A DNA stretch of 64,000 nt from Gemmatimonadales bacterium. GTDB lineage: Bacteria; Gemmatimonadota; Gemmatimonadetes; Gemmatimonadales; GWC2-71-9. The stretch spans positions 103,039 to 167,038 of the forward strand of contig JBFGJG010000002.1 of the NCBI GenBank assembly GCA_041577295.1, written 5' to 3'. A program made the translations under genes and the position numbers. Positions 3,052 through 64,000 of this stretch are shown here, piece by piece; position 1 is the first letter of the stretch, and the number at the start of each line of letters is the position of its first letter. Below the pieces are notes generated by a model, which was not told the DNA's origin, ran no database searches, and was given only the letters and a program-made list of their open reading frames with translations.

Positions 3052-3492
3052 TCAATTGATCGTGACGCGGCTCTTGACGGCGGGTTCGGCCTTGGGGAGC
3101 CGTAGGGTGAGGATACCATCCTGGTAGGTCGCCAGGATCTTATCCGGATCTACGACTTTGGGGAGCCGCAGCGACCGGACGAACTTACCCTCCTCCCGTT
3201 CGCGCCAGATGTACTCCTCCGTCTCATGCTCCTTGCGGAATTCTCGCTTTCCGGAAACGGTGAGTACGTTTTGCTCGAGGGTCACATCCAAGTTTTCCTT
3301 GTGAACACCTGGCGCTTCGAGACGAACCACGAACTCCTTATCTGTCTCGGAGCAAGCGAGTGCCGGTGCCCATTCGGTCTCCACCAATGGAACCTCGAAC
3401 CGGCTAAACGGGAACTCGAAGAACCGGTCCAGCAGCTTGTCGAACTCCTGCCGCATGCGCGGAATGGGCGGTGCCGCTTTGGTGAGTTTCAC
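3052..3492 (-). CDS. Hsp20/alpha-crystallin small heat-shock protein
   Basis: Alpha-crystallin domain (WAPALACSETDKEFVVRLEAPGVHKENLDVTLEQNVLTVSGKRE...GKFVRSLRLP...A.YQDGILTLRLPK). I moved the start to GTG 3492 because AGGAGG lies 6 nt upstream. The tracked ORF start at 3576 adds an implausible Trp-rich leader. Confidence 0.85.
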   Translation of the reverse strand: MKLTKAAPPIPRMRQEFDKLLDRFFEFPFSRFEVPLVETEWAPALACSETDKEFVVRLEAPGVHKENLDVTLEQNVLTVSGKREFRKEHETEEYIWREREEGKFVRSLRLPKVVDPDKILATYQDGILTLRLPKAEPAVKSRVTIN

Positions 3493-3682
3493 ACGCCACC
3501 TCCTGCTGACATTGACCCTTTTTAGTGTATACCTCGTCCAGTGAAGCCACACTGAAACCCAGTTGAACCATCCCAACCAGCGTTAAGACTTCATTAAGGC
3601 TCCCTTCACTTGCCGCTCACTCCTTTCCGAGTACCGTCCACCCGCGATTGTGAACCGCGTCCAAGTCGCGGGAGGTAGTTTG

Positions 3683-4609
3683 ATGTCCGGAACCGAATGG
3701 AAGCCGGTTGTTGTTGGAGTCGACGTGTCTCCCGAAAGTGCGGGGGCAGCGGCGCTGGGGTGCAAAATCGCGGCGGCCGCGGGGACGACGTGTCATTTGG
3801 TTCACGGAACGCGGGCGGTCACCGCCATTCCTGTATCTCCTCCGCCGCTACCGGTCGATCCCGTTGCACTGACCAAACAGTTGACAGAGGCGGCCGGGCG
3901 AAAGGTCAAACAAGCGCTCGGGGGACATGCGCCGGCAGCGGCTCTCGAGAGTCTAGAGGTGCGACTCGGCAACGGGGCTTGGGCCCTGCGGCATTCGATT
4001 GAGGATCACGACGCCGGGCTCGTGGTCCTGGGCGGCAAGCACCACGCACCCCCCGCACGATGGCTGGGTGGCAGTACCGCCCATCACGCGGTCCGGATGA
4101 TCGACATTCCGCTTTTGATTAGTTGGTCTCCCCGGCAGACCATACGGCGGGTATTGGTGGCGGTAGATCTTTCCTATGCCGCGGCGCCGACCTTGGAGAC
4201 GGCAGTGCGCTACGCAGCGCTGTTTGACGCTGAGTTGCGCGCGCTCCATGTCGTAGAGGATCTCCCGTTCAGCGACGAGCTGCGGTTACCATTAGACCAT
4301 GACGCGTACCATGAGTTGTCGGCTGAACACTTCGACCGTATCATGGACGCACAATCACCCTCGCAGCGTACAGAGCGGGTCGTACGACCGGGCGAACCCG
4401 CTCGAGTGATCGCCGAGGAGAGCGCTCTCTACGATGCCGACCTGGTCGTGGTTGGCTCACATGGGAAGGGGTGGGTAGACCGACTCATGATCGGCAGCAC
4501 GACCGAGCGGCTGCTCAATCACCTCCCGACGTCGCTGTTGGTGGTCCAGGTCCGGGCCACAGAAGGCGATACCACTGCGTTGACGCTCGAGGCCGCTGCA
4601 AGCGCTTGA
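3683..4609 (+). CDS. Tandem universal stress protein (two UspA domains)
   Basis: Two USP repeats. The second carries the ATP-binding motif GSHGKGWVDRLMIGSTTERLL. Start set at ATG 3683, preceded by GGGAGG. Confidence 0.8.
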   Translation: MSGTEWKPVVVGVDVSPESAGAAALGCKIAAAAGTTCHLVHGTRAVTAIPVSPPPLPVDPVALTKQLTEAAGRKVKQALGGHAPAAALESLEVRLGNGAWALRHSIEDHDAGLVVLGGKHHAPPARWLGGSTAHHAVRMIDIPLLISWSPRQTIRRVLVAVDLSYAAAPTLETAVRYAALFDAELRALHVVEDLPFSDELRLPLDHDAYHELSAEHFDRIMDAQSPSQRTERVVRPGEPARVIAEESALYDADLVVVGSHGKGWVDRLMIGSTTERLLNHLPTSLLVVQVRATEGDTTALTLEAAASA

Positions 4610-25825: not shown

Positions 25826-27304
25826 TCACACGTCGTAGTACAGGAAAAACTCGTAGGGATGAGGACGGAGCGCCATCGGACCACACTCCTTGTGGCGCTT
25901 GTACTGCAGCCAGGTCTCAATGACATCTCTGGTAAACACGCCCCCTTCCATCAGAAAGTCGTGATCGCTCCCAAGGGCATCGAGTGCTTCGTTCAACGAT
26001 CCCGGGGTATTCTTGACCAGCATGCGGTCCGCCGGATCGAGCTCGTAAAGGTCTTTGTCGATAGGGGCCGGCGGCTCGATGCGATTGCGGATCCCATCGA
26101 GTCCGGCCATCAACAAGGCTGCAAAGGCCAGATAGGGATTGCAGGATGGGTCCGGTGCGCGAAACTCGATCCGCTTCGACTTTGCCGAGTCGCTGTAAAC
26201 GGGGATGCGGCAGATGGCACTGCGGTTCCGTTTTGAGTACACGAGATTGATAGGGGCTTCGTACCCAGGAACCAGCCGACGATATGAGTTCGTCGTGGGC
26301 GCTACCAGCGCCAGCAGCGCAGGCGCGTGCCGCAACAGCCCCCCGATGTAGAACCTCGCGGTCTCCGAGATCAATCCGTAGCCGTCTGCTGCATAAAAGA
26401 GGTTCTGCTCGTCCTTCCACAAGCTCTGGTGCACATGCATCCCCGATCCGTTATCTCCAAACAGCGGCTTTGGCATGAACGTGGCCGTGTAGCCATGCGC
26501 GTTGCAGACGTTCTTGACGATGTACTTGTACATCATCACCTGGTCCGCCATTCGCACCAACGTGTTAAATCGCATGTCGATCTCGGCCTGACCCGCCGTA
26601 CCAACCTCGTGGTGCTGCACTTCCACCTCGACGCCAGAGTCCTCGAGTGCCAGCATGATCCGTGACCGCAGATCTTGCATCTTGTCCAACGGGGGAACCG
26701 GGAAGTACCCCTCCTTGTGTCGCGGACGGTGAGCGAGGTTCGGCTGCCCGCCGTCGCGACCGGAATTCCAGATGCCTTCCTCCGCATCGATGTGGTAGTA
26801 GCCTTCGTGGGCGTTTTGGTCGAACCTGACCGAGTTGAACGCGTAGAACTCCGCCTCCGGACCCCAGTAAGACGTCGTTGCGATCCCGGACTTCACGAGA
26901 TAATCCTCGGCCTTGCGCGCGATGAACCGTGGATCACGACTGTACTGCCTTCCCGTGGTGGGGTCGACGATGTCGCACACCAGAACGAGCGTCGGGACTT
27001 CCAAGCAGGGATCCACAAATGCGGAGGAGGGATCCGGCATGAGCAGCATGTCGCTTTCGTGGATCGCCTGAAACCCGCGAACGCTCGAGCCGTCGAAGCC
27101 GAGGCCCTCCGCAAACAGATCTTCTGTGAGTGCCCGCGCCGGGATGGAGAAGTGCTGCCACTGACCGGGAAGGTCGCAAAAACGCACATCAACCACTTTG
27201 ACGCCGCTCTCCCTCGCCTTACTGACCACGTCGGCGGCGGAAGACGACGGGGTCGGGTCCAGTTTGAGGCCATCCGATGCTTTCGGCGGCATTGTCGCGG
27301 TCAT
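25826..27304 (-). CDS. glnA: Glutamine synthetase type I (beta-subtype-like), copy 1
   Basis: [61 protein letters not shown], and a Tyr-containing loop KDLYELDP at the adenylylation-loop position. Start set at ATG 27304, preceded by AAGGAG. The tracked start at 27388 adds 28 unsupported residues. Confidence 0.9.
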   Translation of the reverse strand: MTATMPPKASDGLKLDPTPSSSAADVVSKARESGVKVVDVRFCDLPGQWQHFSIPARALTEDLFAEGLGFDGSSVRGFQAIHESDMLLMPDPSSAFVDPCLEVPTLVLVCDIVDPTTGRQYSRDPRFIARKAEDYLVKSGIATTSYWGPEAEFYAFNSVRFDQNAHEGYYHIDAEEGIWNSGRDGGQPNLAHRPRHKEGYFPVPPLDKMQDLRSRIMLALEDSGVEVEVQHHEVGTAGQAEIDMRFNTLVRMADQVMMYKYIVKNVCNAHGYTATFMPKPLFGDNGSGMHVHQSLWKDEQNLFYAADGYGLISETARFYIGGLLRHAPALLALVAPTTNSYRRLVPGYEAPINLVYSKRNRSAICRIPVYSDSAKSKRIEFRAPDPSCNPYLAFAALLMAGLDGIRNRIEPPAPIDKDLYELDPADRMLVKNTPGSLNEALDALGSDHDFLMEGGVFTRDVIETWLQYKRHKECGPMALRPHPYEFFLYYDV

Positions 27305-27426
27305 GAGCGGTCTCCTTGCTCTGTAAAGACGCCGGGCCGACCCAGCAGAGTGGGGCGACCCGGCGGTCGGTCCATAGGTGTCCAGCAACGCACGGCTGAA
27401 GCTATTGGTCGCCTGTCATGGTGTCA

Positions 27427-51733: not shown

Positions 51734-53950
51734 CTAGAAGCTCATATCCCACGTCAGCGTGACGCTTCTGCCGGGCTGCGGGCGGAAGAAGCTTGCGTTG
51801 GCAAACTCCGCATAGAGCTCATTGGTGAGATTGTCGATCACGACCAGCAGGCGATGCACGTGCGGGCCGCGCCGGAAAACCGTGACGCCGCCCCGGATCG
51901 CATGAACCGTGAACGCCGGCAGAATCGGGCCCACGGGATTGTCGATTACTAGGTCAACGTCCTTACGATCTCCGTTGTGACGGAACGCATACTCGACCCA
52001 GAACCGGTCCGTGGGGAAGGTGTACCGGGCACGACCCGTGAGCTTCTCATCGAAGGAGTCGCCCACCGGGTTGTTTTCATCGAGGACGTTCTTCGAGTCC
52101 TGATGGGTATAACTACCGCCGAGGGATACGCCCGCCGGCAGGTTTACGTCGCCCCGCAACTCGACTCCCCAGAACCGGAGCTTGTCGACGTTCACGTTCT
52201 GGAACATCGGTTGTCCTTGGGTCGTCGTATCACCGGTCGGGGAGATGCGGATCCCGTTGTGGATCTCATTGCGAAAGACGAAACCTTCGAGATCGAGCAC
52301 CTGGTTTCGGTAGCGTAGTCCAAAGTCGAGATTGAAGCTCGTCTCGGGTTCGAGTGCCGGATTCGCCACCTGAAAGGCCTGGCCCTCAGGCGTCGGGCCG
52401 TTGAAGAAGCGCTCAACCAAATTGGGCGCGCGAAACGCACGGCCGACCGAGGCGACCGCTGCCAAATAGTCGGTGAGCTGGTAGAGGCCATTGGCGGAGG
52501 CGACCAGAGTACGGTCCGTATCAGACAATCCAGGGTCACCCAGCCCAGCCGTTTGATCGGTCTCGGCATGAACGTCCTGATAGCGAGCACCCAGCACCAG
52601 CGTGGCACGATCGGTCAACTGCATGTCTCCCTGCACGAAGACCCCGACGCTGCGGAGGCTGGCATTGGGAACTGGTGGCGTTGTGACCGGTGGAATCGGA
52701 GGCCCGGGCACACCGGGAATCCGAACTTCGACGATGCTGGAATCGGAATTGTTGGAGTCGTCGTGGAAGAAATCGGCGCCGTACGTCACCATCACACGGC
52801 CACCGACCAACTTGCTGGCCTCGATTCTCGAGCCAACGGTGGTCACGTCGGTGAAGTTGCTGGAGAACTGCCGGATATCGCCCACGACGTTGGGGCCAAA
52901 GGGAATCCCGGATACCAGCACGTCGAGATTGAACCGTCGATCGTTGTCCTGGAAGTACCCCACGACGTCCAGCTTGTCGGCTACGGCCGACTGCAAGTTG
53001 GATGCGTGATATCCAAGGGACACTTTGTCGAACCGCTGGAAGGGATAGTCGATGCTAATCGATGGCAGATCGGGTGCATACACTTCCGGATCGACGAAAC
53101 CAAATCCGGTGGTGTCCGCCCGATACCCTTCGTATTTCGCGAAGATCTCGTGGCCAGCACCGATTTCGTAACCGACGCGTGCGCCAAAGCTCTCATCTTG
53201 GACGCCGGTGCCGAATACGGGCGTCTTGGCATCCAGCGTAACGTTGCCAAACGAACCAGCCGGCGCGTCGTACGGACCTGCGTCACGATACGTGCCGGTG
53301 CCCCGGAACGACAGCTTGCCGTACCGGCCGGAGATACTCGCTGTGACCTTGTTCTGCGAATCGTGGGAGCTGAACCGATAGCTGGCGGTGCCGTGCAGTC
53401 CCTCTTGCTGTGGCGTCCGGGTGATGATGTTCACCACCCCACCGATGGCGTCGCTACCGTACAGCACCGACGCCGGCCCGCGAACCACTTCCACCCGTTC
53501 AACACTCGTTACGTCCACGAGGGCGGGAATTTCACCGAAGTCTTGTTGGCGGCGTGAATTGTTGAGACGCATGCCGTCCTCGAGAACGAGGATGCGCTGA
53601 CCGCGCTGACCACGAATGATCGGCCGAACCTGCGTGACGCCAACCCCTGCGACGTCGAGACCGGGGAGGTCTCGGAACAGATCGCTCACGTTGTTTGGCA
53701 TCCGCTCGGCAATGCGGAGTTGATCGAGGACGCTTACTGGATTCGGTGTGATGAAAACATCCTTTGCGGTACGTGTCGCGGTGATGGTCAGGGGACCAAG
53801 CGTCACGGTGTCGCGAGGTTGCTGATCGCCAGTTGCCTGCGCGCGAAGAGCCGTGGGAAGAAGTACGTTCGCCGTCGAGGCGAACAGCAGAACAGCAAAA
53901 GCGAGCCAGACCATGCTCGCGGGCTTGGATACTGATTGTGCGGTAAGCAT
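51734..53950 (-). CDS. TonB-dependent outer-membrane receptor
   Basis: Signal peptide. TonB-box-like DTVTLGPLTITATR. Plug motif VEVVRGPASVLYGSDAIGGVVNIIT. C-terminal beta-barrel ending TLTWDMSF. Confidence 0.9.
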   Translation of the reverse strand: MLTAQSVSKPASMVWLAFAVLLFASTANVLLPTALRAQATGDQQPRDTVTLGPLTITATRTAKDVFITPNPVSVLDQLRIAERMPNNVSDLFRDLPGLDVAGVGVTQVRPIIRGQRGQRILVLEDGMRLNNSRRQQDFGEIPALVDVTSVERVEVVRGPASVLYGSDAIGGVVNIITRTPQQEGLHGTASYRFSSHDSQNKVTASISGRYGKLSFRGTGTYRDAGPYDAPAGSFGNVTLDAKTPVFGTGVQDESFGARVGYEIGAGHEIFAKYEGYRADTTGFGFVDPEVYAPDLPSISIDYPFQRFDKVSLGYHASNLQSAVADKLDVVGYFQDNDRRFNLDVLVSGIPFGPNVVGDIRQFSSNFTDVTTVGSRIEASKLVGGRVMVTYGADFFHDDSNNSDSSIVEVRIPGVPGPPIPPVTTPPVPNASLRSVGVFVQGDMQLTDRATLVLGARYQDVHAETDQTAGLGDPGLSDTDRTLVASANGLYQLTDYLAAVASVGRAFRAPNLVERFFNGPTPEGQAFQVANPALEPETSFNLDFGLRYRNQVLDLEGFVFRNEIHNGIRISPTGDTTTQGQPMFQNVNVDKLRFWGVELRGDVNLPAGVSLGGSYTHQDSKNVLDENNPVGDSFDEKLTGRARYTFPTDRFWVEYAFRHNGDRKDVDLVIDNPVGPILPAFTVHAIRGGVTVFRRGPHVHRLLVVIDNLTNELYAEFANASFFRPQPGRSVTLTWDMSF

Positions 53951-54112
53951 TGAAGGCGCTCCGGTCGAGGAAATACGAACCGGGGGGGGACGCAGAATTC
54001 GTGGCGGGGTGCCACCCAGCTAGCGGTTCGTCGAGCCGTCGAACGGTCTTAGGTTACTTCAGTTCAGCCACTTGTGGTATTCGGTCTGCTACGGATCGAC
54101 GGCACCGAATTA

Positions 54113-54793
54113 CTACGGTGGTGGGGGAAACGGACTGTCGAGCACCCCCATTTCCATCGCGAATCGTGTGAGACCCGCAATCGTGCGGATCCCCAGCTTG
54201 CGCATCAGATTCTCGCGATACGACTCGACCGTTCGATGACTGATCCCCAACTCGCTCGCGATCTCCTTGTTGGTGCGACCCTCGGCGACCCGGCGGAGCA
54301 CCTCCCGTTCTCGCGGCGTCAACTCCGCCAACCGCCCTTGCTGTTCCTCGCGGGTGGCTTCCTGTCTCAGCCCTTCGCCGAGTTGCTTGGCGACGGCTGG
54401 ACTGAAGAACGAGTCCCCGCGGTATACTGCCCGTACCGCCTCGCGCACCTCGGCAGGGCGGGCGTCTTTCAGTACATAGCCATCCGCGCCTGCCCGCACA
54501 GCCTCAGTCACGTACTGTGGATGGTCGTGCATGCTGAGGATGAGGACGCGAATCTCGGGATGCTGCGTCCTGAGCATCGGAAGTAGCTCCAGACCCGAGG
54601 CGCCCGGCATCGTGATATCCAATACGATCACATGAGGACGATGCTCACCCGTGAGCCGCAGAACGTCCGAGCCATCCGTCACTTCGGCGACCACTTCAAA
54701 ACCGGCAGCGCCTGACAACACGTGCCGGATGCCCTCGCGGACGACCGCATGGTCGTCCGCGACGAGAACTCGGATCGGCTCGCCAGTACTCAT
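54113..54793 (-). CDS. NarL/LuxR-family response regulator
   Basis: Receiver domain (IRVLVADDH...VIVLDITMPG). HTH region LTPREREVLRRVAEGRTNKEIASELGISHRTVESYR. Confidence 0.9.
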   Translation of the reverse strand: MSTGEPIRVLVADDHAVVREGIRHVLSGAAGFEVVAEVTDGSDVLRLTGEHRPHVIVLDITMPGASGLELLPMLRTQHPEIRVLILSMHDHPQYVTEAVRAGADGYVLKDARPAEVREAVRAVYRGDSFFSPAVAKQLGEGLRQEATREEQQGRLAELTPREREVLRRVAEGRTNKEIASELGISHRTVESYRENLMRKLGIRTIAGLTRFAMEMGVLDSPFPPPP

Positions 54794-56604
54794 TCCGAAG
54801 ACGAAGAAGTTATGGGTGTGGTCACCACGAGCCTCGCACCGCCACCAGGGGCTGACGTAAGGGAGACCGTTCCACCTAACACCGTGATACGCTCACGCAT
54901 CCATGGTAGACCCATGTGTCCCTTACGCTCCAACGTGAGCAGCTCGGCATCCGGCGGTGGGCCACGTCCATCGTCATCGATGGTCACTGTGAGCCTATCT
55001 TCTGTCGCCGTGACCCGTACCTCAACCAGCTGCGCTTCTGCGTGGCGTGCCACGTTCGCCAGCCCTTCTTGGAGCGCGCGAAACAATGCCAACTCGGCAT
55101 CATCGGTGAGCCCGGGCAGGGTGCTCGGCGCTTCGAATTGCACTTTCACACCGCTTCGGGCACGAAAATCGTGCACGAGCGCGCGCATGGCCGGAAGGAG
55201 TCCCAAGTCGTCGAGCAGCGATGGACGCAGATCGTTGAGAACGTTGCGAATCCCTTGAATCCCTGTGTCCATCAACCCCATGGCGTGATCGAGACGATTT
55301 GCAAGCTCGCGATCAGCGGTCTCGCGCATGACGCCCAGCTGTAGTTGAACGGCCGAGAGAACCTGCGCGGTTTCATCGTGTAGCTCGCGAGACAGGCGTT
55401 GGCGTTCACCCTCGTGTTGTCGCACCATCCGCGTTGCAAGGCGCTCGAGCTCCTCACGCCGAGCCTCGAGTCGCCGATAGAGATCCGCACCCTCGAGGGC
55501 AGCCCCTACCTGCTGCCCCAACGTGACGAGGAACCGCGTGTCCAACGCCGCAAAGGGATCGCGCGCATCCCCAACGATCAACAGCGCGCCGCTCACCTTC
55601 GCCTCGCGGAAGATTGGCAGCGCCGCGGCGTACGCGAATGCAATATCTCGATCCCGTTCACTCGTGCGACCGTCTCGGACAATCTCAGGCGCGCCAGAAC
55701 CTATGGCACGCGTGATGGCGGAAAGTGCCGAGCCATGGGGCACCTGCCCTGCCCACCCACTGCACACACCTGCTGCGGCCACGAACACCCCGCCGTCTCG
55801 CTCCACCACGTACATCGCACTGCCGCGCACACCGGGCAAGCCCAGCGGCCGTTCGACCAAGCGACGAAGCACGTCGGGGCGCTGTTCCCGCCCGCCGTGC
55901 TGAAGATCTCCCGAGAGCGCGGAAAGCGTGCTGAGCGCGCGATGCTGGTCCTCCAGTACTAGCAGCAGAATTCCGGCGCCCATCGCGAGGACGAAAATCA
56001 GATCCAAATAGTATCCCCAAGGGACCCAGGCCCCCCGCGCCCGGAGAAACGGGTAGTCGAGGTGGTGCAGTCCCCACAGCAGGAGGGCGACACCGAGCAA
56101 GGCGGCCGCTGGAGAGCCAACCTGCCGGTGATAGCGGTAGAACACCCAAGCGGTCCAGATCGTCGCCGCGCTGAGGAAGAGCACCGCGGGTCCCGCCGCA
56201 AGGAGAAAGTTGTCGAGCCGGTAAATCGCGACGTAGGACCACACCACCGGGAACAGCACTGCAACGAGGTATTCCCACTTGAACCGTATCTGCTGAGAGA
56301 AAACCAGCGCGGCCCATAACACCCCTAGGGCGGTCCAACCGGTTGCCACCTGATGCCAATAGAGCCAAACCCGATTGGCGGATTCGAGAAAGCTGATGAT
56401 CGCACCGAGACGGAGGGCGTACAGCGTCCACGCGACGCTCCACCACGCGAAGTACGGCTTGCCATAACGCCGAAAGAGAAACACGCACAGCAGCGCCAGG
56501 GCCAGCGTGACCCCACCCTGAAGGAAGGCCGCCGCCAGCTCGGAGGCATCGGCGACACGGGCGCCTAACTCCATATCTTGGAGCTTGTTAGAGACCGCAA
56601 ACAT
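54790..56604 (-). CDS. Membrane sensor histidine kinase: N-terminal multi-TM sensor, GAF, HisKA_3, HATPase_c
   Basis: Six to seven TM helices in the first roughly 220 aa. GAF-like region. H-box ELHDETAQVLSAVQLQLG. ATPase motifs DDDGRG and GHMGLPWMRER. Stop overlaps the regulator start. Confidence 0.85.
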   Translation of the reverse strand: MFAVSNKLQDMELGARVADASELAAAFLQGGVTLALALLCVFLFRRYGKPYFAWWSVAWTLYALRLGAIISFLESANRVWLYWHQVATGWTALGVLWAALVFSQQIRFKWEYLVAVLFPVVWSYVAIYRLDNFLLAAGPAVLFLSAATIWTAWVFYRYHRQVGSPAAALLGVALLLWGLHHLDYPFLRARGAWVPWGYYLDLIFVLAMGAGILLLVLEDQHRALSTLSALSGDLQHGGREQRPDVLRRLVERPLGLPGVRGSAMYVVERDGGVFVAAAGVCSGWAGQVPHGSALSAITRAIGSGAPEIVRDGRTSERDRDIAFAYAAALPIFREAKVSGALLIVGDARDPFAALDTRFLVTLGQQVGAALEGADLYRRLEARREELERLATRMVRQHEGERQRLSRELHDETAQVLSAVQLQLGVMRETADRELANRLDHAMGLMDTGIQGIRNVLNDLRPSLLDDLGLLPAMRALVHDFRARSGVKVQFEAPSTLPGLTDDAELALFRALQEGLANVARHAEAQLVEVRVTATEDRLTVTIDDDGRGPPPDAELLTLERKGHMGLPWMRERITVLGGTVSLTSAPGGGARLVVTTPITSSSSE

Positions 56605-56717
56605 GTAAGCTGCTTAAAGGAAGCGACGGATCAGGCGTGACGCAATGGAAGATGGCGGTGCTCGCCACCTAACCCTAGGCCGTTGGTCACGCCCCGTCCG
56701 CGCACTTTCGCCAGCGA

Positions 56718-58130
56718 TCAGCTGTCGTAATACAGGAAGAACTCGTGCGGATGCGGCCGCAGTAGAATAGGATCGACTTCGTTCTCCATCTTGTAGTCGA
56801 TCCACGTCTCGATCAGGTCGTCGGTGAACACGTCTCCCTTGGTGAGAAACGCGTGATCTTCCCGGAGCGCAGCGAGCGCCTCTGGTAACGATCCCGGTGT
56901 GTGGCGATAGGCTGCCAGCTCGTCGGGTGTCATCTCGTAAATATCACGGTCGAGCGGCTCGCCCGGGTCGATGTTGTTCTCGATGCCATCGAGCACCGCC
57001 ATCAGCATCGCGGAGAACATGAGGTAGCCATTGCAGGTCGGATCCGGACAGCGGAACTCGAGCCGCTTCGCCTTGGGGTTAGCGGAGTACATCGGGATGC
57101 GCACCGCAGCGGAACGGTTTCTCGCCGACATCACCAGGTTGATGGGTGCCTCGAAACCAGGCACCAAGCGCCGATAGGAGTTGGTTGTAGGCGCCGCAAA
57201 CGCCAAGACCGCCGGCGCGTGTTTCAGCAACCCACCAATGCCGTGGAGTGCGAGCTCGCTCAAATCTGCGTAGCCTTTGCCCCCAAAGAGCGGCTTGCCT
57301 CCCTTCCAGAGGGAAAGATGGGTATGCATGCCGCTGCCGTTGTCTTGAAACACCGGTTTCGGCATGAACGTCACCGTCTTCCCATGTCGCTTAGCCACGT
57401 TCTTTATGACGTACTTGTACCACATGAATTGATCGGCTTGCTCGAGCAGGGGGGCGAAACGCATGTCGATCTCGCTCTGGCCAGCGGTGCCCACCTCGTG
57501 ATGATGAGCTTCAACCACTACGCCGATCTTCCGTAACGCGTACACCATTTCGCCCCGGAGATCGTGATACGTATCAGTGGGGCTGACGGGGAAGTAACCG
57601 CCTTTGTAGCTCGGCTTATACCCGAGGTTCGGCTCCTCGAACCGGGCGGTGTTCCACGCGCCCTCTACCGAATCGATCTCGTAGAAGCCGCGGTGCTCGT
57701 TCTGCTCGTAACGGACCTCGTCGAAGATGAAGAACTCGGGTTCGGGACCGATGTAGCAAACGTCGCCGACTCCGGTCTCTTTGAGGTACTCGGTCGCCTT
57801 CCGGGCGACGTGCCGCGGATCTCGAGTGTAATCCTCTTTGGTCACCGGGTCGACGATGTCTGCGATCACACTGACCGTTGGCTCCTTGAAGAACGGATCG
57901 ATCACCATTGAGTCAGGGTCGGGAATGGCGAGCATGTCCGAGACGTGGATGCCTTGCCAGCCACGAATGGACGAACCATCGAATCCCACGCCGTCTTCGA
58001 ACGTGCTCTCGTCCCACGTGTCGACCGGAAAAGAGCAGTGCTGCCAGGTACCCAGGAGATCGGTGAACTTCAGATCGACCATCTCGGCATGGTGTTTCTT
58101 GGCAAAGGCGAAGAAATCGCTAGGCGGCAT
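56718..58130 (-). CDS. glnA: Glutamine synthetase type I (beta-subtype-like), copy 2
   Basis: [61 protein letters not shown], and Tyr loop RDIYEMTP. Confidence 0.9.
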
Positions 58131-58249
58131 GTTGATCGGCTCCGTGCTGCGAGGTCAGTAGTGGGGATCGCTCCGGGTTTCCGCTGTGGAGCAACCGGCG
58201 CCACGTTAGGCTACCGAGGGCGGGTACGCAAGGAAGAGAACTCGAAGGC

Positions 58250-58563
58250 ACAGGTCTGGTGACTTCGGCCGGGGGCGGGCCTTGCAAGGTCTGAGACGTG
58301 AGCCCTGAGGCCCAAGTCGCGACGACTTGGATCCAAGTCGAGGCGACTCTGGCCCAAGTCGAGGCAACTTGGCTTTGCGGAGGGTGCCCCGAGGCCTCAG
58401 TCGCGACAACTTGGACCCGATTCACAACGACTAAGGTCTCGAGAGGGGTGTCTGAGGCCTGAGATGCGACGACTTGGGTCCAAGTTGGGCCAACTTGGAT
58501 CCAATTCGCGGCGACTCAGGCCCAAGTTGACACGACTTGGGTCAAAGTCGGAGCATCTGAGAC
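58250..58563. repeat. Array of about 14-15 tandem 21-bp units, each an imperfect palindrome CCAAGTCG-N3-CGACTTGG
   Basis: Clear units at 58312-58330 (CCAAGTCGCGACGACTTGG), 58333-58352, 58354-58372, 58394-58413, 58415-58435, 58458-58477, 58480-58498, 58501-58520, 58522-58540 and 58543-58561. Degenerate units fill the two gaps and the 5' flank. Start-to-start spacing is 21-22 nt. Confidence 0.85.
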
Positions 58564-58746
58564 GATGGTCTAGACGCGTAACAGCTGTGTTGGTAATGGA
58601 TTACAGCATCTGGTACTCATGGACGGCCCGCGGCCACGAAGACCTGGCTCCAACAGCTGCGATCAGGCCGATCGAGGTACCCAAGCCGAGCCGGGTCGCG
58701 CCGCCTCCGTGGTGTGGAGCCTTTCGCGCGGCGTAATACCTCGCGA

Positions 58747-58775
58747 AAAGCCCCGGCTGCTCACCGGGGCTTTTT
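58747..58775 (-). terminator. Rho-independent terminator downstream of tRNA-Cys (bidirectional shape)
   Basis: AAAAGCCCCGG-ctgctca-CCGGGGCTTTTT, a 7-bp GC stem flanked by A/T runs on both sides. Confidence 0.6.
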
Positions 58776-58780
58776 GTCAG

Positions 58781-58852
<72 letters not shown>

Positions 58853-63052: not shown

Positions 63053-64000
63053 TCAGTATTTGCCGAGGTACTTCTCCGCTTCCCACGGGCTCACCATGGC
63101 GGAATACTCGAGCCACTCCTGGCGCTTCGCTTCCACAAACCGCCGGTAGATGTGATCGCCGAGCGCATCGCGAATGATCCGGTCCTTTTCCAAATAGTCG
63201 AGGGCCTCGTGGAGATCTCGTGGCAACTCGTCGATGCGATAACGTCGCCGTTCCCGAAAGCTCATCGAGAAGATGTTTTTGTTGACGGGATCGGGCGGTG
63301 TCAGGCCTTCCTCGATTCCGTTGAGACCGGCCGCGAGCTGTACGGTGAGCGCGAGGTACGGATTGGCCGACGGGTCCGGCATCCGCAGCTCGCACCGGGT
63401 GCCCTGTCCGCGGCGATCGGGGATGCGGATGAGCGGGGACCGATTGCGCATGCTCCAAGCGACGTTGGTCGGAGCCTCGTACCCCGGCACGAGACGTTTG
63501 TAGCTGTTTACCAATGGATTGGTTACAGCACAGAATCCACGCGCGTGCTTCAACAGGCCGGCGATATAGCCGAGCCCCACTTCCGAGATTTGCCACTTCG
63601 CCTTGGGATCGAAGAACGCGTTCTTGCCGTTCTTGAACAGCGACTGATGCGTGTGCATCCCCGAGCCGTTCTGGCCCTGGATGGGCTTGGGCATAAACGT
63701 CGCGAGAAACCCGTGCCGGTACGCGATGGTCCTCACCACGAACCGGAACGTTGCGATGTGATCGGCCGTGGTGAGCGCGTCGGCATACCGGAAATCCACC
63801 TCGTGCTGACCCGAGGCGACCTCGTGATGCCCCGCTTCGACTTCAAAACCCATGTGAACGAGGTCGTGGATGATCAGTCGTCTTATGGGTTCCGCACGAT
63901 CCACTGGTGCCAGGTCGAAGTAGCCACCCTGGTCGTGAGTCTCGAGCGAGGGATCCCCTCGTTCGTCCAAGTGGAAGATGAAAAACTCGGCCTCACACCC
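63053..64000 (-). CDS. glnA: Glutamine synthetase type I, alpha-subtype (Bacillus GlnA-like), copy 3. The 5' part lies beyond the window.
   Basis: [92 protein letters not shown]-terminal WEAEKYLGKY. No Tyr at the adenylylation-loop position (KNIFSMS). Confidence 0.9.
   Translation of the reverse strand, partial: GCEAEFFIFHLDERGDPSLETHDQGGYFDLAPVDRAEPIRRLIIHDLVHMGFEVEAGHHEVASGQHEVDFRYADALTTADHIATFRFVVRTIAYRHGFLATFMPKPIQGQNGSGMHTHQSLFKNGKNAFFDPKAKWQISEVGLGYIAGLLKHARGFCAVTNPLVNSYKRLVPGYEAPTNVAWSMRNRSPLIRIPDRRGQGTRCELRMPDPSANPYLALTVQLAAGLNGIEEGLTPPDPVNKNIFSMSFRERRRYRIDELPRDLHEALDYLEKDRIIRDALGDHIYRRFVEAKRQEWLEYSAMVSPWEAEKYLGKY

Follow-up and report, generated by a model that had tools for sequence, protein, structure and literature searches.

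A degenerate tandem array of palindromic 21-bp units upstream of glnA in a Gemmatimonadales bacterium

Several kinds of short-repeat array are described in bacteria. Minisatellites, or variable-number tandem repeats, of which mycobacterial MIRU are an example, are head-to-tail repeats of tens of base pairs that lie between genes, belong to one lineage and bear signs of multi-unit duplication. Tandem 20-bp dyads at a spacing of 21-22 bp are a known layout for NarL-family regulators, among them BvgA and DevR/DosR, and for ArgR, whose ARG boxes follow an 18 bp + 3 bp scheme; such operators comprise 2-4 sites, kept in orthologous promoters and found again across a regulon. The iterons of P1, F and R6K, parC of R1 and pSK41 and sopC of F hold 5-12 or more degenerate, phased repeats to which one protein binds cooperatively. 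CRISPR arrays hold palindromic short repeats that are regularly spaced, and repetitive extragenic palindromes (REPs), with the bacterial interspersed mosaic elements (BIMEs) that they form, are imperfect intergenic palindromes of 20-40 bp, often species-specific, for which tandem reiteration is reported (PMC3733652; PMC2817692). Here we describe an array of palindromic 21-nt units between a tRNA-Cys gene and the glutamine synthetase gene glnA of a Gemmatimonadales bacterium. It lies in a stretch of 64,000 nucleotides, hereafter the window (assembly GCA_041577295.1, contig JBFGJG010000002.1, positions 103,039 to 167,038). We read it as an old, decaying, species-specific minisatellite of a palindromic 21-mer that exists at the DNA level and has no dedicated function, and give this reading a probability of about 45%. 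An earlier note on this DNA, made from the sequence alone, knew of no described element of this form; that was too strong, since tandem REPs, phased iteron and centromere arrays and tandem operators of 21-22 bp are all on record.

The array sits in the 650-bp spacer that separates the tRNA terminator from glnA. Thirteen 21-nt units stand head to tail at 58291-58563, in a single register and with zero net indel when the sequence is laid out in lines of 21 nt. Each unit consists of an 8-nt arm, a 3-nt spacer, a second 8-nt arm and a 2-nt linker. Two very degenerate units (starts 58249 and 58270) continue the register on the promoter-proximal side, at 58249-58290, and bring the total to 15; they match the consensus arms at 9/16 and 6/16 positions, and the direct-repeat family D1 extends to 58266. 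The parts of the array, none of which is assigned to a strand, are these:

58291..58563, core array of 13 units (register layout, autocorrelation, unit table, alignment A3, family D1)
58249..58290, two marginal promoter-proximal units (unit table, family D1)
58291..58311, diverged X-type unit, consensus about CTGnGAGGGGTGCCCTGAGGC (unit table, identity matrix)
58312..58372, three successive well-kept palindromic units, 58312, 58333 and 58354 (8, 6 and 7 of 8 positions complementary)
58375..58395, diverged X-type unit (unit table, identity matrix)
58396..58414, palindromic unit CTCAGTCGCGACAACTTGG (5/8 complementary)
58438..58458, diverged X-type unit (unit table, identity matrix)
58480..58540, three successive palindromic units, 58480, 58501 and 58522 (8, 5 and 7 of 8 complementary)

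The array is well beyond chance. Autocorrelation peaks at lags 21, 42, 63 and 84, with values of 0.49-0.53 against a background of ~0.25, and in the 64 kb a sliding scan at lags 4-79 detects periodicity nowhere else. When up to 3 mismatches are allowed, the dyad CCAAGTCG-N3-CGACTTGG matches seven times in the window, every time within the array; 0.59 matches are expected, and the maximum over 100 shuffles is 3, so that 0/100 reached 7. The tandem palindromic array that the earlier note placed between tRNA-Cys and glnA is therefore real and where it was said to be, and the five units quoted as examples are all exact. Its count of about 15 units holds if the very weak units 58249 and 58270 are included; the clear units number 13. 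Palindromy, ascribed there to every unit, belongs to seven of the 13, which share the dyad CCAAGTYG-N3-CRACTTGG and have at least 5/8 Watson-Crick arm positions (a background chance of 0.035); the other six have at most 4/8. Where two diverged units had been counted there are three of the X type (58291, 58375, 58438), each standing at the head of a block of palindromic units.

Aligned without gaps (A3), the 13 units have the consensus CCAAGTCGnGnCGACTTGGnn. Divergence is strong: any two units agree at between 5 and 18 of 21 positions, and 85/273 cells differ from the consensus. For this reason Tandem Repeats Finder recovers only 3.2 copies, at 58309-58373. Column 10 is G on the plus strand in 10/13 units, which makes the spacer asymmetric and gives all units one orientation; the same ungapped alignment reveals no conservation of the loop sequences among units. 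The base composition is that of the surroundings. A protein-coding heptad repeat (21 nt being seven codons) was considered and rejected, as stops occur within the array in all frames of both strands, and in loci L038 and L039 gene callers put no gene in the array-bearing spacer. Like a CRISPR, the array has short palindromic repeats at regular distances; unlike one, it has units that are degenerate and abut with a 2-nt linker, and no cas genes are seen. The absence of spacers settles the point, as the earlier note had it.

On the present data the array belongs to one species only. The exact GlnA protein is found in two NCBI assemblies, GCA_041566175.1 and GCA_041609635.1. The 806-bp spacer from Dps to glnA is identical in the window, L038 and L039, with equal copy number; little change in copy number is to be expected, because L038 is 99.9% identical to the window (12 differences in 10 kb). 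In the closest other relatives GlnA is 87-90% identical, and four groups of loci retain the order of glnA, kinase, regulator and TonB-dependent receptor. The regions upstream of their glnA genes contain no array, no 21-nt periodicity and no unit matches, and a BLASTN search with the spacer at word size 7 returns only noise. Since these relatives have other upstream neighbours and share no similarity with the spacer, the spacer is a synteny breakpoint. For the Dps neighbour the next-best homologue outside the same species is only 65% identical, so that no intermediate relative is on record.

Wider collections give the same picture. We scanned for a good unit followed by CCAAGT within 2-32 nt, a pattern that occurs at 12 loci in 185,579 species genomes, at 19 in JGI metagenomes and at none in IMG/VR; the species' own locus was returned by neither the genome nor the metagenome collection. 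None of the matches is a Gemmatimonadota array: they are singletons or unrelated repeats of 34, 23 or ~11 nt. The genome matches are at chance level (12 against about 8 expected, by a rough estimate), save for the 34-nt repeats in L007 and L018. Some of the metagenome matches likewise prove to be repeats unlike the array, of 23 nt in L027 and as ~11-nt CCCAAGTTGG runs in L026, L032 and L036. A BLASTN search against plasmids and phages finds no match. In the window there are 5 half-sites beyond the array, where 4.5 are expected, and a position-weight matrix built from ten units reaches at best 11.4 bits outside it, below the mean shuffle maximum of 12.6. Two apparent traces in relatives were set aside. 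A single site with 2 mismatches in L041-L046 is probably due to chance, given its place in what is probably the coding start of the TonB receptor and its absence from L001. An excess of 9-10-mers shared with L041, including AGTCGCGACAA, comes from a crude mononucleotide-shuffle test only and is not supported by BLAST; it is unproven.

Some of the scanned contigs deserve a description of their own. L018 (197-300) and L007 (~350-420) are freshwater actinobacterial contigs with 3-4 tandem 34-nt repeats. In L018 each repeat has CCAAGTCGACACGACTTGG, a perfect palindrome, with TTTG behind it, and the run stops ~50 nt before the start of an open reading frame (ORF); the palindrome is the same as that of the array, while period and context differ. 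L026, L032 (100-1000) and L036 (260-720) are contigs of 49-57% G+C, packed with degenerate ~11-nt (G)CCCAAGTTGG repeats.

The position of the array relative to the glnA promoter bears on whether it could act as RNA. The features on either side of it are:

56718..58130, minus strand, glnA, type I glutamine synthetase of 470 aa, downstream of the array (ORF list)
58140..58143, minus strand, Shine-Dalgarno sequence GGAG, 9 nt before the glnA ATG and aligned with CGGAGGA of the relatives
58203..58231, minus strand, putative glnA core promoter, with -35 TTGCGT at 58231-58226, a 17-nt spacer and -10 TAACGT at 58208-58203, placed by comparison rather than by mapping
58746..58774, no strand assigned, hairpin AAAAGCCCCGG-N7-CCGGGGCTTTT just past the tRNA-Cys 3' end (inverted repeat I14; folds)
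58780..58852, minus strand, tRNA-Cys (GCA), the upstream neighbour

In an alignment of the last 100-120 nt before the glnA ATG (A2), CTTGCG and CTAAnCT blocks, 17-18 nt apart, are common to the window and four relatives (L001, L006, L040, L041). The pattern TTGNNN-N15-19-TANNNT has a single match on the minus strand of 58100-58800, and this match is the putative glnA promoter. Because a stricter consensus scan finds zero promoters, we infer the glnA promoter from the comparison with relatives. Transcription would then start near 58196 and the array would lie at about -60 to -370, its end about 15-60 nt upstream of the putative -35 element. With the shared promoter placed between it and the ATG, the array would be upstream DNA and not leader. 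The spacer contains no sigma-54-type promoter, and an enhancer of the sigma-54/NtrC type was accordingly discarded. Taken together, CTTGCG-N17/18-CTAAnCT and CGGAGGA may serve as a promoter template for the clade.

On the other side, the array starts 217 bp from the tRNA-Cys 3' end. The hairpin at 58746-58774 is missed by a consensus terminator scan. It has a run of A on one flank and five T on the other (58746-58779), and looks like a two-way terminator that parts the tRNA from the array. Between array and terminator lies an A+T-richer patch (58580-58660) with a small palindrome, GTAATGGATTAC, at 58594-58605 and a longer-range inverted repeat, CAGCTGT..TGG / CCA..ACAGCTG, for which no function is evident. 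A small RNA in 58563-58780 was rejected, the folding z-scores being only -1.7 and -2.1 and Rfam giving no match.

The earlier note had considered a structured 5' leader or sponge RNA. The array would in that case be transcribed on either strand, as part of the glnA leader or separately, and its string of hairpins would act, for instance, as a protein sponge or a stability element; we hold this to be very unlikely. Both strands do fold well beyond the level of shuffles (z = -6.3 for the minus strand, -5.9 for the plus strand), and the five T that follow the hairpin on the plus strand could end a plus-strand transcript. Equal folding of the two strands is, however, what any palindromic DNA would give. 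The minimum-energy folds are long composite hairpins and not a string of unit hairpins, and stable isolated hairpins form in units 58312, 58354, 58480 and 58522, with 58333 weaker, and with no strand preference: 4-5 units, where about 10 hairpins had been proposed. Under a hairpin model of the 13 ungapped units, the paired cells amount to 74%, where shuffling the partners within columns gives 69.9 +/- 2.5% (36/500 as high), and the covariation score is not significant (65/500 shuffles). At the L7/R2 pair the combinations C-G, C-A, T-G and T-A occur in nearly equal numbers, so the two arms drift independently. The loop sequences vary among units as well. In Rfam only two tRNAs reach the gathering score, and up to E of 1 the array itself meets eukaryotic miRNA models, far below threshold; no curated model of a regulatory RNA, such as the glnA/glutamine riboswitch, is matched. 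Transcription fares no better: the sole promoter-like site on the minus strand is downstream of the array, the sole one on the plus strand has a 15-nt spacer and falls within it, and the tRNA-Cys terminator stands upstream. We conclude that the array acts, if at all, as DNA.

Among the options that the earlier note listed, the best fit is the minisatellite, given an array confined to one species, with degenerate units and the trace of a 4-unit block duplication. The constant 21-nt period and the restriction to one lineage are those of a minisatellite. The segments 58287-58372 and 58455-58540 (the latter including unit 58459) are 77% identical as 4-unit blocks, while other offsets give 60-67%; this suggests that a block of 84 bp was duplicated at least once, in the manner of a satellite. 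Decay is visible in the six of 13 units whose arms are complementary at no more than 4/8 positions. Arm pairing that barely exceeds shuffles and the mixing at L7/R2 mean that the palindrome is not kept up, which supports the minisatellite. Neighbouring units are no more alike than distant ones, so the array is old and is not being homogenised now.

The origin that we infer would run as follows. A seed unit of 21 bp, made of the dyad CCAAGTCG-N3-CGACTTGG and a 2-bp linker, would have been amplified head to tail, through replication slippage or unequal recombination, in the long spacer formed where tRNA-Cys came to lie beside glnA in this lineage. At least one duplication of a 4-unit (84-bp) block would have followed, and the copies would later have drifted to about 50-85% identity. 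Lying outside the glnA transcript, upstream of its core promoter, the array would affect glnA incidentally at most, say by acting as spacer DNA or by bending more readily in one direction. Its presumed neutrality belongs to this same proposal.

Typical minisatellites differ in that their units are not, as here, about 50-85% identical, with neighbours no closer and each unit a dyad. Several observations weigh against a decaying minisatellite. The register is unbroken over 13-15 units in spite of the 85/273 non-consensus cells; if bacterial non-coding DNA takes up ~1 indel per 10-20 substitutions, pure drift would be expected to produce several indels that break the phase. Conservation within the unit is mirror-symmetric (r = 0.86; exact permutation P = 0.007, or 0.011 without the X units). 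Positions C1, A4, G5 and G8 are kept in the left arm and C12, C15, T16 and G19 in the right, while positions 2, 3 and 7 and their mirrors 17, 18 and 13 vary freely and independently in each arm. The AG/CT steps that are best kept come back at intervals of 10-11 bp, on a single face of the helix; plain drift does not predict this. This symmetry could stem in part from the symmetric sequence context and from the shared ancestry of the units. Ongoing slippage would make neighbours more alike; no local homogenisation is seen, the value at lag 21 being 0.49 against 0.52-0.53 at lags 42-84. Copy number, finally, is the same in the three assemblies, contrary to what is typical of variable-number repeats, but these are too close for this to weigh much.

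Phase and symmetry are what a phased binding platform would display, and this is the alternative that we regard as possible, if doubtful. A dimeric protein would bind the dyad CnnAGnnG-N3-CnnCTnnG and, from sites two helical turns (21 bp) apart, form a cooperative polymer along one face of the DNA. This protein would activate, silence or insulate the glnA promoter beside the array, or else the array would titrate the regulator. One candidate binder, the NarL/LuxR-type response regulator, has its gene two genes downstream of glnA. The exact 21-bp phase without indels, the mirror-symmetric, position-specific conservation (P about 0.007-0.011) and the AG/CT steps 10-11 bp apart all suit such a protein, and half-sites that vary independently fit protein half-sites better than base-paired stems. 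The array adjoins the putative promoter, with unit centres at about -62, -83, -104 and so on from the putative start, and the order of glnA, GAF/HisKA_3 kinase and NarL-type regulator is conserved. Dyads at integral helical turns beside a promoter, on one helix face and with a NarL-type regulator gene nearby, also recall the tandem operators of ArgR, BvgA and DevR/DosR (dyads of 18-20 bp, 21-22 bp from centre to centre). Unlike those, the array has 13 sites, a sequence that resembles no such operator, and neither conserved sites nor recurrence in a regulon. Relatives with the same kinase-regulator pair have no site upstream of glnA, and the window contains no further site, though two more glutamine synthetase genes lie in it. 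Degeneracy is greatest in the two units closest to the promoter, half of all units would be poor sites, and the sole non-coding motif common to the gene cluster, CCGTAnnnnACCGAATACC, is unlike the unit. The multi-operator platform of the earlier note is in this sense conceivable but unsupported. Phase and symmetric conservation sustain it as a tentative alternative and do not outweigh the absence from relatives, the lack of a second site and the decay of the promoter-proximal units. The fuller version, in which a dimeric regulator, which might be of the NarL type, coats one face of ~300 bp at 13 or more sites and sets the expression of nitrogen assimilation by cooperative spreading or titration, we consider improbable; we know of no described operator array of plasmid-centromere scale at a housekeeping promoter.

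Dispersed or mobile DNA offers two further sources for such units. The array might be a REP/BIME-like cluster, in which the unit belongs to a genome-wide family of short extragenic palindromes, tandem at this locus and possibly spread by a REP-associated tyrosine transposase. With a 19-nt dyad and 8-nt arms, seven of the units have the form of an imperfect extragenic palindrome of 20-40 bp; as palindromes of 19-21 nt they are intergenic and stand beside a terminator. REP families are often species-specific, and both tandem reiteration and gene-adjacent arrays are reported (PMC3733652). PMC2817692 describes REPs as present in more than 100 copies dispersed over the genome. The dispersal test covers the 64-kb window alone, which a family of ~50 loci would often miss, and in the window there is neither another copy nor an excess of half-sites. 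The consensus unit ends without the GTAG or CGTC tag of REPs (PMC3733652), and the units all have one orientation at a constant 21-bp spacing, whereas BIMEs alternate (PMC2817692). No transposase is found among the neighbour genes that were checked, and altogether this origin seems unlikely to us. Less credible than any other reading is a relic of a mobile replicon, an array of the iteron or partition-centromere type (parC/sopC-like) left by an element once present at the tRNA-Cys 3' end. Phased tandem units of about two helical turns fit it, and the array lies at the said 217 bp from a tRNA 3' end, a common site of integration. Centromere and iteron arrays are likewise degenerate yet phased, and sopC units each contain an inverted repeat. 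The array, by contrast, is chromosomal and in a housekeeping context: its neighbours are Dps, tRNAs, a deaminase, glnA, a kinase and a regulator, with no rep, par or integrase genes nearby, and it bears no similarity to plasmid, phage or viral contigs. An integrated element at tRNA-Cys was likewise rejected, there being no duplicate of the tRNA 3' end and no shift in base composition.

Were the array a decaying minisatellite, it would matter little, although it would be of use as a strain marker and would illustrate how a palindromic seed can expand where synteny breaks. Annotating it as a gene, a CRISPR or a riboswitch should be avoided. If it is protein binding that its phase and symmetry reflect, the array would be a chromosomal operator array of unusual length and a first handle on nitrogen regulation in Gemmatimonadota, for which we know of no described glnA regulator; the evidence does not favour this.

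The gene cluster around glnA has features of its own. Homologues of GlnA carry Gln-synt_N and Gln-synt_C, and the best matches are 80-90% identical, several being labelled Gemmatimonadales or Gemmatimonadota. On the 3' side of glnA and on the same strand follow a GAF/HisKA_3 histidine kinase (54790-56604) and a NarL/LuxR-type response regulator (54113-54793), beyond which lies a TonB-dependent receptor (51734-53950, minus strand). The order of these four genes (51734-58130) is conserved in L001, L002, L041 and L044-L046, which suggests a nitrogen-linked two-component unit. The short motif CCGTAnnnnACCGAATACC is conserved in non-coding DNA, just downstream of the gene for the regulator and upstream of that for the TonB receptor (window 54075-54096, minus strand; L041 8956-8977; L001 8036-8057, approximate), and L041 and L001 have in common a G+C-rich leader of ~120 nt before the receptor start codon, with no Rfam match. 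The end of the L039 contig (window 55806 to about 55900) has ~50-100 nt that are unrelated to the window and looks chimeric or mis-assembled.

Three glutamine synthetase paralogues occur in the 64 kb, all on the minus strand and all matching Gln-synt_C: 25826-27388, of 520 aa and with an N-terminal extension; glnA itself at 56718-58130; and 63053-63970, an ORF that starts at an internal TTG and spans the catalytic domain only. In L004 and L005 a MerR-family gene (3413-3841) is directly upstream of glnA, an arrangement that resembles glnR-glnA of Bacillus.

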